Below, piece after piece: positions 3,710 to 38,815 of a DNA stretch of 64,000 bases. The position numbers and the translations under genes are program-made. Source of the DNA: Pseudovirgaria hyperparasitica (lineage: Eukaryota); NCBI GenBank assembly GCA_010093815.1, contig ML996570.1; one strand, 5' to 3'. Within the stretch, counting starts at the first letter, position 1; each line of letters starts with the position of its first letter. Below the pieces are notes generated by a model. The model did not search any database. It was given only the letters and a program-made list of their open reading frames with translations, and had not been told where the DNA came from.

Positions 3710-5312
3710 ATGGATTCGGATTCAGACAACCAATACGATGACAGGGGCCCGGAGTCAGAGGTGGAAGAGGAGGCGCCAAAACCCAAATCCGCGTTAAAAA
3801 AGAGTGCGCCTGTCCCAGCCGCTGTACAAAGGCCCGAGTTGCCAGAACAGCCGAATCCAGATACAGTAGACTTCAGTACTCTATCGCCCTTGTCTCCCGA
3901 GATTATATCGCGACAGGCGACCATAAACATCGGTACCATAGGGCACGTCGCCCACGGGAAATCGACTGTGGTAAAGGCTATCTCCGGAGTGCAGACTGTC
4001 AGGTTTAAGAATGAGTTGGAGCGGAATATCACGATTAAGCTTGGATATGCAAATGCGAAAGTCTACAAGTGTAACAACTCAGAGTGCCCACGGCCTACAT
4101 GCTTCAGAAGCTATAAGAGCGACAAGGAGGTCGATCCTCCTTGCGAGCGCGAAGGATGTTCAGGTAGATACGAGCTAATGCGCCATCTTTCGTAAGTCTT
4201 TCTCGGGAAATTCGTAGCAGCAACTAACTGAAATCATTAGTTTTGTCGATTGTCCCGGTCACGACATTCTCATGAGCACCATGTTATCAGGCGCCGCCGT
4301 TATGGACGCCGCTCTACTTCTCATTGCCGGAAACGAACCGTGTCCTCAGCCCCAGACTTCCGAACATTTGGCTGCTATCGAGATTATGAAGCTCAATAAT
4401 ATCGTCATATTACAGAACAAAGTTGACTTGATGAGGGAAGAGGGCGCCGATCAGCATTATCAGTCTATTCTCAAGTTTATTCGCGGCACTGTTGCGGACG
4501 GATCACCCATCATTCCAATATCTGCTCAGCTGAAGTTCAACATTGACGCGATCAACGAGCACCTCATCTCAAACATTCCGGTTCCAGTTCGTGATTTCAC
4601 TGCTAAGCCTCACATGATTGTCATTCGATCTTTCGATGTCAACAAGCCTGGCGCAGAGATCGAGGAGCTGAAAGGTGGTGTTGCTGGTGGCAGTATTCTG
4701 ACTGGTGTGCTCAAGGTCAATGACGAGATCGAAATCAGACCGGGCATTGTCACGAAGGATGAATCCGGCAAAGTGGTTTGCAAACCGATCTTTAGCAGGG
4801 TGGTTTCGCTCTTTGCAGAGCACAATGACTTGAAGTTTGCCGTTCCGGGTGGACTGATTGGTGTGGGAACACGCGTCGACCCTACGTTGTGCCGTGCAGA
4901 TCGTTTAGTAGGGTTCGTCCTTGGTCTCAAAGGCCATCTACCTTCCATTTACATTGAGCTGGAAGTCAACTACTTCCTTCTTCGACGTCTTCTTGGAGTG
5001 AAAACAGCCGATGGGAAGCAGGCTAAGGTCGCAAAACTGACCAAGAACGAAGTTCTTATGGTCAATATCGGCAGCACATCAGCAGGCGCTAAAGTCATGG
5101 CAATCAAAGCTGATGTTGCTCGTCTGAGCTTAACGAGTCCAGCATGTACTGAGATTGGGGAGAAGATTGCGCTTAGTCGAAGAATTGAGAAGCACTGGAG
5201 ACTTATAGGATGGGCCAACATTGTCGCGTACGTATCATTTGAATCACCTTTGCTACTGAACTCAACTAACCTAGACGGCAGTGGCTCCACACTTGAGCCG
5301 ACCGTTGATTGA
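3710..5312 (+). CDS. GCD11: Translation initiation factor eIF2 gamma subunit
   Basis: [20 protein letters not shown]-loop, [14 protein letters not shown], zinc-knuckle Cys residues, FVDCPGH across intron 4192-4240, [17 protein letters not shown]. Last intron 5228-5281. Confidence 0.98.
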
Positions 5313-8305: not shown

Positions 8306-11197
8306 ATGCAGTCAGCTGCGAGAAATCAGACGGAGATACAGTCCCAGAGGACAAAGGTGGGCGCAAGTCGGACTTGAGCGTCGAAGAAGAAGGCTGACCT
8401 GATGCGCAGCTTACGAACTCGTATAAAGAGCTGCTGGAGTAAGATTATCCCCATCTGAACCTGGTCTTTGCCGAGACATGATGAATTTAGGATGCGCTCC
8501 GATGATTGTTTGGTCTGATACTAAGCTTCGTTTTGCAGTGAATTTTCTTCAAGCGACCTTCGCCATGTAGGAAACTATAGCTTGGGGCGACTCATAGGGA
8601 AGGGCTCGTTTGGCAAGGTGTACCTGGCACACCATAAGTTGACCAATGGCTCGAAGGTGCGAGATCATAAAGAGGCAAAAATGCTCTATACTAAGATTAC
8701 GTTTTCAGGTCGTGCTCAAGTCCGCAAAGAAAGATGATACCAACCTTGCTCGGGAAATACACCATCATCGCCAATTCCTACATCCACACATTGCGCGATT
8801 GTACGAGGTTATAGTCACTGAGAATCTGGTGTGGCTAGTGCTGGAATACTGTCCAGGTAGGAGATTCTCCCCCAAATACACACACGATGTGATTTGAACT
8901 GGCCCTGACAAGATTGGTTTTCTTCAGGCGATGAACTGTATAATTACCTCCTCAAGTCTGGGGCCATGGAACCGGTAAAGGTTCAGAAAATCTTCACACA
9001 GCTCGTAGGCGCAGTGTCGTATGTACACAACAAGTCCTGTGTACATCGAGACTTGAAACTGGAAAACATTCTACTGGACAAGCACGAAAATGTTAAGCTA
9101 GTCGACTTCGGGTTTACTCGCGAATATGAGGGCAAGGCGAGCTATCTTCAGACTTGGTGCGGTACGGTTTGTTATAGCGCCCCGGAGATGCTAAAAGGCG
9201 AGAAGTATGCGGGAGAGAAGGTGGATGTCTGGAGTTTGGGCATCATTCTGTACGCGTTGCTGGCCGGTGAACTACCATTCGATGAAGACGACGAGAGTGC
9301 CACCAAGGTGAAGATTCTCAAGGATGAGCCAAGCTATCCTGACACCTTCCCACCAGCAGCGAAGGATCTCATATCTCAGCTACTGTCCAAGAGACCTATC
9401 CTTCGACCCTCTCTAGCCGACATTCTCCAAAACCCTTGGCTGGCTGAGCATGCCCCTCAACAGCAGGCAATATTGAAGCTGCAACAACCGGCACCCTTTA
9501 CCACAGACATTGAAAAGGAAACCTTGCAGCGCATGCGAAGTGCTGGTGTAGATATCGACACGGTCATCGAGAATGTGCTCGCGCAGCGCTGTGACCCTAT
9601 GGCTGGCTGGTGGGCATTGCTGATAGAGAAGGAGGAAAGGAAAGCGAAGAGAAAAGAGAGAAAGCGTAGGGAACGAGAGGCGGAGGCGAAGAGCTTACGG
9701 CGCCTTAGTGCGGCCAGCAGTGCGCTTGATAGACTTGCGCCAACGATAAAAGAAGCAGATGAAGGCGAGCCTATGAGCCCGAGGGATGGTGCGCCCAGAA
9801 GTAGAGGCCGGAGTGCGAAGCGGAGAAGTGCCAATTGTATGTGTATATGTCTATGACTAGGTTATGTATTGCTAACGACTTCAGACGCATCTGCAACGGT
9901 GCCAGACTTACCCAAGCTGCCTGAAAAGAACACACTTACTCCTGAGACAGAGAGTGTTCCACCACCTCCCCCTCCTGTAGAAAAGGATGTAGTCCATTCC
10001 AGGGCATCGTCACGATCAAGACCGTTACCGCCACCAAAGGAGAACCGGAGGTCCCGTAGCTCAATGTTGAACGTGGTGCAGACAAATCCAGATCTTCTCT
10101 CCTCCAATGGTTACGTTCCGAAAAGGAGGCGGAAATATCAAGGGCCCTTCTTTGATCGATTCGCAGCTCTCCGAAATTGGTTTGACAAGGCCAAGAGTCG
10201 TTCTCCAGGGTCGAAGAACAAAACTTTGAATGCTTTGGCATCATCGGAGCAATCGAAGAACGGGTCTGACCTTGCGGCTCGCAGAAGGTCCGTGGCCCAA
10301 TCGAGTACTCCTCGCGTTGCAAACATTCCCAACCGACCCGACCTGTATAAGCGAACATCCTACCCTTCACGGCCAAGAATCACTACAGCTACTTCTTCTA
10401 CGTCGGTCCGTGCGCGACAGTCACTTTCCCCTTCTCCGATAACGCCCCGAGGCTCGTTTCGCCGTGCCTCTGGTCTACGAGGGCGTAAATCAACCTCCAG
10501 CTCCGTGTCGTCTATTCGGAGCCTCCACCACCATCAATATAGCCATTCAAAAGCTTCTTCAACGTCATCAGCATCCATAGCATCACCATCAGTTTCGGCC
10601 TCCGGCAAGCAATCTCGAGGATCCCCACATACATCTGTTAAAGTTCTTCCAGCTATCCCGACAGCATCGTCTACCTTCCCTTCCAACATCCGCCTGGTCC
10701 GTGGATCAAGTGAAGCACAGTCAGCTTTTGGTGGACTACCGCCTCCCTCTCCAGGTCTCATTTTCGCGAAACGGAAACGGAGCCCGTTCAAGGGGCCCAT
10801 GCTGAGTGTCAACACACATAATAGTCCGAGCTCGCTGCCGCATCATCACCATCGATCACATCACACGCGGGATGGTAGCGGTAGCCAGAACAGCCGCAGT
10901 GGTAGCATACAGGGCCGACGGTCTGGCGAGGTCATTCTAGAAGAGGAGGATGAGGAAGAGCCGCTTGGGAGTATGCCTCCAGGCAGAGCCAGTCTGCAAA
11001 GCATGCGAGAGATGGCCGAGGAAGAAGAACTAGAAGAAGACGAGGAAGAAGAGATTGAAGAAGTCGAAGTTTTTAGTCCTGTGGAGGCTGGCAGTACGGT
11101 CGAGATGCTGGTCGAGGAAGAGGGCGGGGAAGGGGAAGAGGAAGCATTGTCAAATGACGGTCCCACCAAAAGCAAGGGGAAGGACACCGCGCTATGA
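8306..11197 (+). CDS. Ser/Thr protein kinase, CAMK/AMPK-related group (S. pombe Ppk16-like), with long Ser/Arg-rich and acidic C-terminal tail
   Basis: Spliced GNYSLGRLIGKGSFGKVY, VVLK, HRDLKLEN, DFG, TWCGTVCYSAPE, DVWSLG. Several short 5' exons between 8306 and 8857. The exact first donor site is uncertain. Confidence 0.92.
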
Positions 11198-13206: not shown

Positions 13207-14992
13207 ATGTTGCTCCAGCTTCCCAACGAGCTGCTGATCGCCATCACGGCAGAGGTCAGTCGAGTGATAGTCGCCATGCCTGGTATCAAGTATCAAGAGT
13301 TGACCGTCTCAGATCAAGGACTTTGTTGCCTTGCTAGCTCTCGCAGAAATTTCGCCTCGCACCTATGCTATCGCCATGCCGTTCTATGAACAGGAAATCA
13401 AGACCTTTCACCCCCAAGACCCGCTCCTCAAAGCGACGTACCGCGGCTGTACATTCGCAGTCGAAACGCTTTTGAAGCAGCGAAAGGACCCGGCAAGCAA
13501 ATGGATGCGTGGCATCAGCAAGGTAACCTCTTGGCCTCCTACTATGCTCCGTCGATATTTCTGACACGCGCAGGGCTATCTCACCCACAACTTCGCGCTG
13601 CTGCATGCCGTCGAACATGGCCAAATGGACATTGCTAGGCTCCTACTTGAGCATGGCACGAACCCAGAGACTAGACGCGGCAGGCAGGGCACCGTTTTGC
13701 AGTTCGCAGCGTGTATTGGCAATCCAGCCATGGCGCAGCTGTTGCTCTCGCACGGAGCAGATCCGAACGCCACGGGCGGCGCGAATGGCTTCGCGTTACG
13801 CGCAGCAGCGCAAGCCGGTCATCTGGAGGTTATCAAGGTATTGCTTGACGGGGGCGCCAAAGTCAATATGCGACACAGACGCGACTCCGCAACAGCACTG
13901 CAGTCGGCAGTGCGGAACAGGCACAATGCAGTTGCAATGTACCTGCTGAGTCGTGGGGCCGATGACAACGAACATGACGATGACGATTCCTTTGCGGCCG
14001 GCAAGACATTCCGTGCAGCTCTCGACGTGCATCAGAGGCACGGCAACATGGAGATATTGACGGAGCTCGTGTCCAGGCTGGAAGTCGACTCCCTCGCCGC
14101 AGTCAACAGTCTAGCATCAGCCGCCAAATCCGGCGACGCAGCCATCGTCAACCTCCTCCTCCACCACGGCATCGACATCACCAAGACCGGCGTCCGCGCC
14201 CTCGGCATCGCCGCCCGAGCCGGCCACCTCCCGATCCTCAAAATCCTCATCGCCGCCGGCGCAAACATCAACGGCCAAAACCACACCAAAGGCACCGCCC
14301 TCCTCCGCGCATCCATCGCCGGCCACACCGCCTGCGTCAGCCACCTCCTCGCCCACGGCGCCCTCGTCAACATCACCACCCCATCCGGCGCCCGCCTCAT
14401 CCACAACGGCTGGTCCTGGACCCCGCACTTCAGCACCGCCCTCCAGGCCGCCTGCTGGCACGACCACACCCCCATCGCACAACTCCTCCTCGACGCCGGC
14501 GCAGACCCAAACACCTCCTCCGCCGCCCGCTGGTTCGCCCCGCTCAACCTCGCCGCCTACCGCGGCAACATCGCCCTCGTCCGCCTGCTCCTCGACGCCG
14601 GCGCCGATGCTTCCGCGCGTGGACAAAAGTACGCCGACACCGCCCTCCAGGCCGCCACACAGCGTCGTCGTCACGATATCGTGCAGCTTCTCCTTGACCG
14701 CGGCGCCCGCATCGATGGCTCTGGCGCGCTGCAGAATGCGTGTGGGGCGCGGTATGCCGAGGTGGGCGATGTCGCGCTTGTGCGTTTGTTGCTGGCGCGT
14801 GGTGCGGATCCGAATGAGCGGGCGGATGCGTATGCTGTTACGGGGTATATTAGTGCGATGAATGGGCCGGGTGAGGTGTTTGTTAGTGCGCTTGAGGTTG
14901 CGAGGCGGCGGGATGGTGGTGGTGGTGAGGGCTTGGGCGGTGATGCGGGGGAGATTGTTGAGTTGTTGCTTCAGCATGGTGCGGTGGGGTGA
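13207..14992 (+). CDS. Ankyrin-repeat protein with N-terminal F-box-like motif
   Basis: Exon 1 MLLQLPNELLIAITAE. Introns 13255-13312 and about 13523-13573 join in frame to the 13625-14992 ORF, which carries many ALxxAAxxGHxxxVxLLLxxGADxN repeats. Confidence 0.85.
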
Positions 14993-15413: not shown

Positions 15414-15507
<94 letters not shown>

Positions 15508-15517
15508 NNNNNNNNNN

Positions 15518-15607
<90 letters not shown>
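15414..15607. repeat. (CA)n microsatellite containing an assembly gap
   Basis: Perfect CA dinucleotide run on both sides of 10 N. Confidence 0.98.
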
Positions 15608-36396: not shown

Positions 36397-36876
36397 GGTA
36401 TATATATATGTATGAAATGAAAAAGGACATGAAAGGAAATGAACGAAAAGAATGGGAGGGAACTTTGTCCTATGTGCTACGTGCTATGATACATAGCTAT
36501 TCTTGGCCTTACCCGCCTTAGCTCCCGCAGACCAGAACAAGGGAGAAAAACGAAAGAGAAAAACTTGTTCTGAATACGTAAGTGTATCAAGCGTACCAAG
36601 CGTACCAAGTGCACGAAGCGTACCAAGCAAGTGTGTATACATCTACCGAATATGGTACTGCGTCATGAAATATATATTATAGAATACCAGAGTATTGTCA
36701 TACTAGGTCTTTCTTATACTGGGTCTTTCTTATACTAAAACAATCCTCATACTAAAAGGTCCTGATACTAAACGGACCTGATACTTATACCAAATAAACC
36801 CCCGAAAAAAAACAAGATTATATATATCTCATCTGAATAACTCACTCTTCCAAAGGTAGTAACCTATAGAAGGGTA

Positions 36877-36959
36877 GGCCAGGTGGCGTAGTGGTAGTGT
36901 GCTGCGCTACTGGAAGCGTTGGTCATCCAACGTCGTGGGTTCAAATCCTATAACGGCCA
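36877..36959 (+). pseudogene. tRNA-like Pol III module (A box TGGCGTAGTGG, B box GGTTCAAATCC); not a canonical tRNA
   Basis: GGCC...GGCCA termini, D-arm-like GCGT-AGTGGT-AGTGT, T arm GTGGG-TTCAAAT-CCTAT. The inner acceptor stem is mismatched and there is no clean 7-nt anticodon loop. Confidence 0.75.
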
Positions 36960-37821
36960 CCTTTTCACACACCAGTTTTCGCACGCTCTATTAAAAAGTG
37001 TGCGGGGCTAAGCGAGCACGTGACGTGAAGGTTACCGTCATATAACTACTTAGTCCTAAGCGACCATTAGGTAATATGAAAATGACTATACCGTTATTAC
37101 ATGATAAGAATTACCTAATATAGCCACCTACTAAGCCACCTTAAGTGGTAGAGCGACGCCTAGAGCGGCTAGACCTATAACTAGCTTAGCTCGAATCATA
37201 GAATTTTCACTATATACCGGGGCCTTATCCACCCTAATCCGGTTTAGCTCGCGCTTACTCCGGCTCGGTAACCACGAAATAGACGGTAATACCTAATTAA
37301 GTATCCCGCCTACCTATAGACGATTATATAGCCCCGAAGAATAATTTCCGAATTCGGCCTAGCTAGGGTTAGTACTAACGCATGGACCTATTAGATATAT
37401 ACCCCCTCCGGCATTAGTCATCTTAATTAATAACTACTACCTAGCGTAAAGCTATATTTCTATAGATAGGAAAAAAACACGGTAACATAGGAATAAAAGA
37501 CTAGGCCTAGCCTAGCGACCTACCTAATTATAAGAAAGGTAATACCTACTATAGTTAGTTAGGGCGTTATTAAGAGCCGGTACTAATATAGTAATAAAAG
37601 CCTAATATAAGGATAAGAAGTAAGTTTGTTACCTAATGGGATTCGAGGACTTAGACTAGGCTAGGTTAGATTAGTAATAGGGTCTAGTTAGGGAGCTAAT
37701 TATAGGAGGTTTTCTTATATATATAGTAGCCAATACTAGAGGAGGCCTGAGCCTGTGGAGCATATATATGGCTATATATATAGTTCTTCCTAGTTAAACA
37801 CTAATATTATATTATTATTAT
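36877..37821 (+). mobile_element. tRNA-derived SINE-like non-autonomous retroposon (~945 bp), RIP-mutated, with a 12-bp target-site duplication
   Basis: TATAGAAGGGTA at 36865-36876 and 37822-37833. tRNA-like head starts on the base after the first copy; (ATT)n tail at about 37805-37821 precedes the second. No ORF; body visibly TpA-rich and CpA/TpG-poor. Confidence 0.8.
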
Positions 37822-38815
37822 TATAGAAGGGTACTTATAGAAGAGAAGTATCATGAAGTATATTATTAAAAGAGTTGTAGTATTCCAATCTCCTGTTAGT
37901 GCCCGAAGGATGGATAGTTATGTATGTAGAAATTAGATATGAAGATTTTAATTTTTAAAGGATGAAGATGGAGAAAGTCTTAAGGCAGAGCAGAGGGTAT
38001 AGAGTAACGACGGGCGGCACATAGGGGTGACAAGTGCATGTATCGTCTATACCGTTCCGAAATACTGTGCTTGAGAGTAGTGTCTCTACGTGTATCCATG
38101 TATCTGTGTGAGTCGTTATATATATAATAGGTAAGAGGTTGCTAGGTCTGCGTATGAGCTATTATCTCTCTCTATCTCTATATATATATAAATATAATAT
38201 ATAGAGTAGCGTGTTATAGAGTAAAATACCAAAAAACCCAACCTCCTACATGCTAACCCACCACTACCTACACACCACACCATACCACCTACATACATCC
38301 ACACAACAACCACATAAGCAAACATACCATCCAACACACCCTTCCTCCAAGTCTACCCAATCTCCTCTAACAGAGCAAAGACAGGCACAGAGCTACTACC
38401 CCCCTCCCCTACCCACCTCAATAACCCAACAACCAGCCAGCCACAAACACTGAATCGAAACGCACGCACACTCAAAAACAAATTATAAGCAAAAAAAAAA
38501 AAGAATCACAAAGTTTCCGAATTCATTGTAATGAATGTCCAGACAGATACAATACATCAAACTCGTATATTTTTTAAAAAAAAAACTGATGACATAAAAA
38601 ACTACTATTGATGTGTACGTAGGTAGGTAAGTAAGTAAGTAAGTAAGTAAGTAAGAATAGCCAATATTCTATCTCTCAATATAGAAAAAAAAAGACGCCG
38701 GGTCTATGCAATATGACGCTCCAATCTCCCCCCCCTGCTCTCTTATGTCTCAGAGATATATGTATATGTATATATGTACGAAGTCTATATATACCAATCA
38801 ATCCAAACCACCTGC

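Follow-up and report, generated by a model that had tools for sequence, protein, structure and literature searches.

A fungal SINE with a partner LINE is known from Magnaporthe, where Mg-SINE is paired with the LINE MGL/MGR583. It has a tRNA-derived head, does not code for protein, ends like a LINE at its 3' side and lives in a filamentous ascomycete (PMC3747384, PMC2104539, PMC5063351). The same can be said of the pair described here from Pseudovirgaria hyperparasitica, a mycoparasitic Dothideomycete (PMC7082219), the comparison being one of described features. Mg-SINE is 472 bp long and has about 100 copies, whereas the P. hyperparasitica SINE is about 930 bp long and has about 30 copies, all mutated by RIP, and a TATA target.

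Another pair occurs in Aspergillus, where AfuSINE2-1a goes with the Tad-clade LINEs I-1_AF and I-4_AO. Like the P. hyperparasitica SINE, it has a tRNA head, a trinucleotide tail, a target-site duplication (14 bp) and 3' similarity to a LINE 3' UTR, in its case over about 125 nt (PMC5063351). The AfuSINE2 elements measure 140–493 bp and are low in copy number; AfuSINE2-1a has an ACT tail and a partner with RNase H (PMC5063351). In P. hyperparasitica, by contrast, the SINE ends in a TAT tail, and no RNase H is seen in the partner lineage.

A further SINE/Tad1 pair comparable to the present one is that of SINE2-1_BG and Tad1-24_BG in Blumeria (PMC3747384). The same fungus has long SINEs, Egh24 and Eg-R1, of 884 and 657 bp (PMC10648671), the length of Egh24 also being given as 900 bp (PMC5063351). 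With mgsr1 at 800 bp (PMC5063351), fungal SINEs of 700–900 bp are on record (PMC5063351, PMC10648671). Blumeria SINEs number thousands of copies in a genome without RIP, whereas the P. hyperparasitica family is small and cut down by RIP.

The table of a 2013 review lists two fungal SINE/LINE pairs (PMC3747384), and AfuSINE2-1a adds one (PMC5063351). These comparisons draw on the papers cited and on bioRxiv 10.1101/2020.09.27.311811. No description of the P. hyperparasitica family was found in the open-access literature searched; one could stand in Repbase, Dfam or SINEBase, in subscription papers or in the genome paper's supplements. The word "SINE" is absent from the main text of PMC7082219.

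Features of the insert

The window is the whole 64-kb stretch of DNA that was analysed. Within it, the insert is flanked by a convergent pair of genes. The one on the + strand resembles an amino-acid permease, to judge from its translation, and the one on the - strand encodes an MFS transporter. Its parts are as follows.

36865..36876, + strand: left target-site duplication TATAGAAGGGTA, made of TAT in common with the tail and 9 unambiguous bp; two occurrences in the window
36877..36959, + strand: head of 83 nt related to tRNA, of Ser/Leu-like architecture with its long extra arm (Rfam RF00005, 19.9 bits, below cut-off)
36884..36894, + strand: A-box-like Pol III promoter word (sequence reading and per-copy listing, against the standard consensus)
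36938..36948, + strand: B-box-like Pol III promoter word, with A in the window copy where most copies have G
36960..37706, + strand: non-coding body (no LINE 3' match above shuffles, no ORF2-HMM match, count of T runs)
37707..37804, + strand: LINE-related 3' segment (alignment to LINE ends, predicted fold)
37735–37739 with 37790–37794, + strand: outer stem ACTAG/CTAGT of the 3' segment (predicted fold)
37743–37754, + strand: hairpin 1 of the 3' segment, AGGC-CTGA-GCCT (predicted fold)
37755–37789, + strand: hairpin 2 of the 3' segment, lengthened (predicted fold)
37805..37824 (about), + strand: (TAT)n tail containing a single irregular unit and overlapping the right duplication by 3 nt
37822..37833, + strand: right target-site duplication TATAGAAGGGTA (sequence reading)

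The first-pass annotation had reported the same 12-mer on both sides, a tRNA-like start directly after the left copy and a simple-repeat tail before the right one, and the list bears it out on each point. The 12-mer occurs exactly twice in the window and not at all on its minus strand. It was also right that overlap with the tail leaves a duplication of 9–12 bp, since 9 bp, AGAAGGGTA, are unambiguous and TAT is common to tail and duplication. Between the duplications lie 945 bases, with a SINE core of about 930 bp.

The head starts at 36877, the base directly after the left duplication. Aligned to Rfam RF00005, it covers model positions 1–71, and thus the full model, with 19.9 bits (E 0.4) against a gathering score of 29. 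ARAGORN makes no tRNA call in the 64-kb window. The fold of the head is stable (z -3.9), yet it is not that of a full cloverleaf. Words like the A and B boxes of the Pol III consensus stand at tRNA spacing from base 1, and box-like words are present in the full-length copies.

No parent stands out among the 41 P. hyperparasitica tRNA genes that were compared with the head, an incomplete set. The top matches, to Leu(CAG), Ala and Arg, have low scores. By eye, a Ser(CGA) gene agrees with the head at 17 of its first 19 nt. The D-arm pattern had suggested an intron-containing tRNA gene as the sole parent, a candidate rejected because it ranks just 11th of 41. This gene (L042:1495-1607, contig C6:1073825-1073937) is missed by ARAGORN at default settings; relaxed settings call it Cys, and its anticodon by eye is TAT (Ile).

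The segment was earlier said to be free of ORFs, and indeed no ATG-started ORF of at least 100 aa lies inside the insert. Stop-free runs in the family consensus reach at most 90 codons, and the sense strand of the window copy's body has no run of five or more T.

Elsewhere in the window, an ankyrin-repeat gene with internal DNA repeats occupies 13625-14992, with a long AC microsatellite close by at about 15415-15570.

Copies of the family and their mutation by RIP

A search of the genome with the SINE gave at least 35 matches, and 30 loci from the search were retrieved together with 5 further regions. Among the matches are 23 full-length copies, which are 92–100% identical and have a common 5' boundary. 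The remainder includes two 5'-truncated copies, one tandem partial duplicate, one copy interrupted by a gap in the assembly, three 3' fragments and five older pieces with 76–84% identity. The segment is confirmed as one copy of a dispersed SINE family in P. hyperparasitica, a host identified through a 100% match to ATP11.

An exact target-site duplication of its own, 11–18 bp long, flanks 20 of the 23 full-length copies. Two others have a 15-bp duplication with one mismatch, and one (L010) has none. The 12-mer of the window copy is absent from the duplications of the other full-length copies. The length of the tail varies, and one fixed layout and junction is kept in all full-length copies. 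The 5'-truncated copy L024 has its own 16-bp duplication, and this combination is typical of target-primed reverse transcription. By itself a repeated 12-mer is weak evidence; the observation stands because the architecture recurs in the family with other duplications, and the earlier reading as a full-length member of a SINE family stands with it. The first-pass annotation had itself considered that the segment might be single-copy or internal to a larger element. It is multicopy, the flank upstream of the window copy is single-copy in the genome, and the duplications differ by copy.

These differences also bear on whether the family is a DNA-level repeat, such as a MITE, a solo LTR or a segmental duplication, with the 12-mer there by chance or internal to a larger element. 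Duplications that differ in length and sequence by copy already refute this model, and its remaining probability is negligible. Tails of variable length, 5'-truncated copies, the unique upstream flank and termini that are not inverted repeats (by eye) also count against it. Some DNA-level multiplication has nevertheless taken place, since L006 and L010 share 2.7 kb and L020/L026 is a tandem partial duplicate.

L006 and L010 form an inverted pair on contig C4, 106 kb apart, in which the 2.7 kb in common (SINE and 3' flank) are 95% identical. The 5' flank of L010 differs from that of L006 and there is no duplication, which looks like recombination or duplication through the SINE. L020/L026 (contig C23:67765-69702) repeats bases 1-751, with the same 5' flank as in the full copy. 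An old-subfamily SINE (L028 / L033:7714-8296) is split near its 3' end by an insert of about 580 bp with direct repeats of about 140 bp. Contigs C23 and above hold 25 of the 35 SINE matches against 67 of 155 LINE-end matches (Fisher p 0.003, on copies that are not independent). The contigs with the excess are C23–C33, where local hopping, duplication or a special compartment could be the cause.

Two SINE copies, L016 and L017, lie inside LINE copies. The duplication word of L017 occurs once in the sister LINE copies L032 and L012, and once with one change in L034; that of L016 occurs once in L034, and once with one change in L032. Sister LINE copies with a single target word represent un-inserted paralogous targets within the genome. 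The window locus itself is present in four runs, all from one organism and apparently of the same strain. No joint spans the window copy in these runs, and the rows listed have no substitution outside the element; with one strain only, this carries no weight on whether an empty allele exists.

An older and a young subfamily, 21–32 transversions apart, have kept the same layout. Young copies differ from one another by a mean of 0.63 transversions, so there were at least two waves of spread.

Another model is a chimeric retrogene like the MINE (WEIRD-MGL) of Magnaporthe, in which a host ncRNA is joined to a LINE 3' end by template switching, transcription is by Pol II or read-through and the tRNA-like start is incidental. 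The head, as a weak tRNA match, and a 750-nt body that matches no known source would suit such an origin, as would RNA contigs that contain the copy on contig C24 plus its upstream flank. MINEs, however, join the LINE 3' fragment at variable points, with 28 different junctions in 33 elements (PMC2104539). The full-length SINE copies depart from this pattern, having the same start base and one junction, and the layout is common to two subfamilies 21–32 transversions apart. The box-like words at tRNA spacing also count against the model, and no solo body without a LINE end is found among the matches of the genome search. A MINE-type origin is therefore improbable.

The RNA contigs are spliced and come from runs X3 and X4. 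In each run, one contig has the upstream flank and the alleles of the C24 copy, passes to the window copy near its 3' end and goes on into the MFS gene; it probably arose when the assembly fused two read-through transcripts. Contigs that join the SINE to host flanks give neither strand nor start, and they fit host read-through as well as Pol III. The 5' flank of the window copy is uncovered in the RNA contigs, which is not evidence of silence.

The first-pass annotation overlooked that the window copy has been mutated by RIP, at 58 of its 107 CpA/TpG sites. RIP was scored against a consensus that prefers C or G at variable sites, so the direction of change is built in and the scarcity of transversions is not. 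The C>T rate is 55% at CpA, 9% at CpG, 2% at CpC and 1% at CpT, and changes other than C>T or G>A number 8 in 25 copies. A shuffle that preserves margins detects no excess of shared pattern among the young copies, and their tree is star-shaped, with one well-supported inner branch of 22. This pattern reads as one recent burst, after which RIP would have mutated the copies independently.

A RIP-scarred master, passing through repeated cycles of RIP and amplification, was considered and is not supported. The young copies have no nested pattern, only about 5 of 16 sites that separate old from young are in RIP context (by eye), and the consensus TpA/ApT of 1.39 equals that of an un-mutated LINE 3' UTR (1.42).

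One possible effect of RIP concerns transcription. Fungal Pol III stops at runs of T5 or longer. The T4 after the head has changed to T5 in 12 of the 23 full-length copies, and the window copy keeps T4. A T5 made by RIP is likely to act as a Pol III stop, and could be a way of killing a non-coding element.

The resident LINE and the target word

A search for reverse transcriptases, in which 150 of 474 candidates were scored, led to five LINE-length matches that were retrieved. Four of the five belong to one lineage ending in (TAT)n. Its copy on contig C52 is 5,026 bp long with a 15-bp duplication. ORF1 (486 aa) reads as having three Cys/His knuckles (CCHC) and has no Pfam match. ORF2 (925 aa) encodes an APE endonuclease and a reverse transcriptase (PF14529, PF03372, PF00078); RNase H is absent from it, and PF00075 is present in 2 among 120 homologs listed. 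The three homolog matches that name a species are ascomycetes, and the C52-type LINE is presumably Tad1-like.

Kinship of the last bases of the insert to the 3' end of a resident LINE had been anticipated, and the C52-type LINE provides it. SINE positions 825–929 score 52–59 against four LINE subfamily ends, above the maxima of 28–32 from 100 shuffles, and are 75–79% alike over about 50 nt. The body is a different case. Its comparison with LINE 3' regions is not above shuffles and it has no ORF2-HMM match, and an origin from LINE coding or 3' UTR sequence was rejected on these results.

The SINE and LINE ends have alike predicted folds, in which an outer ACUAG/CUAGU stem encloses two hairpins. 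The stems are paired in 93% of cells, against 31–53% when they are slid, and the loop of hairpin 1 is variable while its stems are conserved. Stability relative to shuffles gives z -0.42 for the SINE (not above shuffles), -2.1 for LINE A and -0.03 for LINE B. Covariation is weak, its level being reached in 33 of 500 shuffles, and both double changes are RIP-like transitions. A two-hairpin 3' structure common to SINE and LINE is thus a prediction from folding.

With this 3' end, the family has the following sequence features of a tRNA-derived SINE (SINE2): a tRNA-related head, no coding capacity, a common 5' end, copy-specific duplications, a simple-repeat tail of variable length and a 3' end in common with a resident LINE (the stringent type). 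The textbook length of a SINE is 100–600 bp, a range that is descriptive rather than defining, and the core of about 930 bp exceeds it. The element had been called unusually long, which is correct relative to the textbook but not relative to fungal SINEs such as Egh24 (884 bp) and mgsr1 (800 bp).

To count target preference, the terminal 7 nt of the left flank served as anchor, since they do not depend on the tail. Twenty-one copies were parsed, 8 loci could not be, and L026 was omitted as a duplicate. In 20 of the 21, the unambiguous duplicated bases are directly preceded by TAT, whose mean frequency in these flanks is 0.077. The sole miss is the window copy, whose irregular tail upset the parser and where TAT is present by eye. 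TATA is found at the left flank in 18 of 21 parsed copies. Three copies in flanks free of RIP (L001, L002, L024) also have it, so RIP alone does not account for the preference. The duplication of the C52 LINE likewise begins with TATA.

With identity this modest, a sister lineage of these LINEs may be the SINE's actual partner. A rival reading is that of a true SINE whose partner is another LINE lineage, such as the family on contig C105 or one now lost, with the likeness to C52-type LINEs reflecting common ancestry of LINE 3' ends. The modest identity and the unequal length of hairpin 2 in SINE and LINE could be taken this way, and in the C105 LINE a 586-aa EN+RT frame is open, the DNA does not match that of the C52 LINE, and the 3' end lies beyond the contig. 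The C52-type lineage, on the other hand, has 155 exact matches to its 3' motif in the genome, the same tail and the same TATA target as the SINE, and the older SINE subfamily is nearer to C52-type LINEs just upstream of hairpin 1. A pattern search for a LINE end bearing the SINE's terminal bases was empty, and a lead from reads to a closer end proved to be another C52-type subfamily. A partner outside the C52-type lineage is accordingly unlikely. Metagenome contigs hold no exact match to the shared 3' motif, which shows little.

The preferred reading is that the insert is a full-length, RIP-mutated, tRNA-headed SINE, likely transcribed by Pol III and likely copied into TATA sites by the ORF2p of a resident APE+RT LINE (probability about 0.83). 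It starts from the observed family, boundaries, duplications, common 3' end, tail, target word and RIP pattern; Pol III transcription, ORF2p binding, TATA nicking and priming by tail and target are likely from established LINE/SINE biology. In this process, Pol III would start at 36877 from the internal A and B boxes and read through, T runs in the family consensus being no longer than T4. The LINE ORF2p would bind the two-hairpin junction at the 3' end of the SINE RNA, and its endonuclease would nick a TATA target, where the tail's 3'-UAU could pair with the freed target strand and prime reverse transcription. A staggered second nick would give the duplication of 9–18 bp. The young subfamily would have spread in its one burst from one master, with RIP acting afterwards on each copy independently.

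In this assembly the pair is probably silent: of 343 ORF2 candidates 49 were scored, and none of these belongs to a LINE copy whose ORF2 is complete. Dozens of stops interrupt 47 of the 49. Only C52 is stop-free, and C39, a 98% duplicate of its 3' half, has one stop. Relative to sister LINEs, C52 is without about 270 bp at the end of ORF2, and with them has lost the in-frame C-terminal CCHC motif, which is present in 60 of 60 long homologs.

Several further observations concern the LINEs. Just upstream of the un-mutated C52 LINE, two tail-less LINE 3' hairpin motifs (L047:8530-8570 and 9060-9125) flank a gene fragment that is ankyrin-like by eye. A palindrome of about 31 bp appears twice in the C52 LINE (L047, minus strand): ahead of ORF1 at 241-271 and again, at 4756-4788, close to where the ORF2 region ends. 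The SINE 3' fragments L032:5471 (C25) and L031 (C8:1582141) start inside hairpin 2, where they abut a LINE of opposite orientation at its 5' end (clear on C25, by eye on C8); the TA-rich hairpin of the SINE seems to be a site of LINE insertion. The C105 LINE (L048) is a second family, cut by both contig ends.

Landing sites and significance

One tentative proposal is that RIP creates the TATA landing sites of the pair and so funnels insertions into dead repeat blocks. The pair needs TAT(A), and RIP converts CACA, CATA, TACA and TATG to TATA, so the defence would itself steer new insertions. In un-mutated LINE sequence, two of the SINE's TATA target words read CACA and TATG. The LINEs that host these two SINEs are 73–87% mutated, more than the inserted SINEs at 63% and 70%, which also favours the proposal. 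RIP flanks have 26–69 TATA words per kb, about ten times the density of 3.4 in the gene-rich window, and they contain 22 of the 25 young copies.

Other accounts leave this proposal somewhat doubtful. At such mutation rates, RIP acting once a SINE was in place could produce the same pattern. The distribution is equally well accounted for by selection that removes insertions near genes. The idea was not found in the open-access literature searched, subscription papers being beyond its reach, and it is the sole fresh idea to come from the pair.

The P. hyperparasitica SINE and LINE are a new example of the known parasite-of-a-parasite arrangement, ordinary in kind, and the concept of a SINE is unchanged by them. 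Documented fungal SINE/LINE pairs are few, and this family is a clean Dothideomycete example. With a defined recognition signal of about 100 nt and a sharp target word, it makes 3'-end recognition by a fungal LINE testable, and it shows the effect of RIP on a non-coding retroposon.
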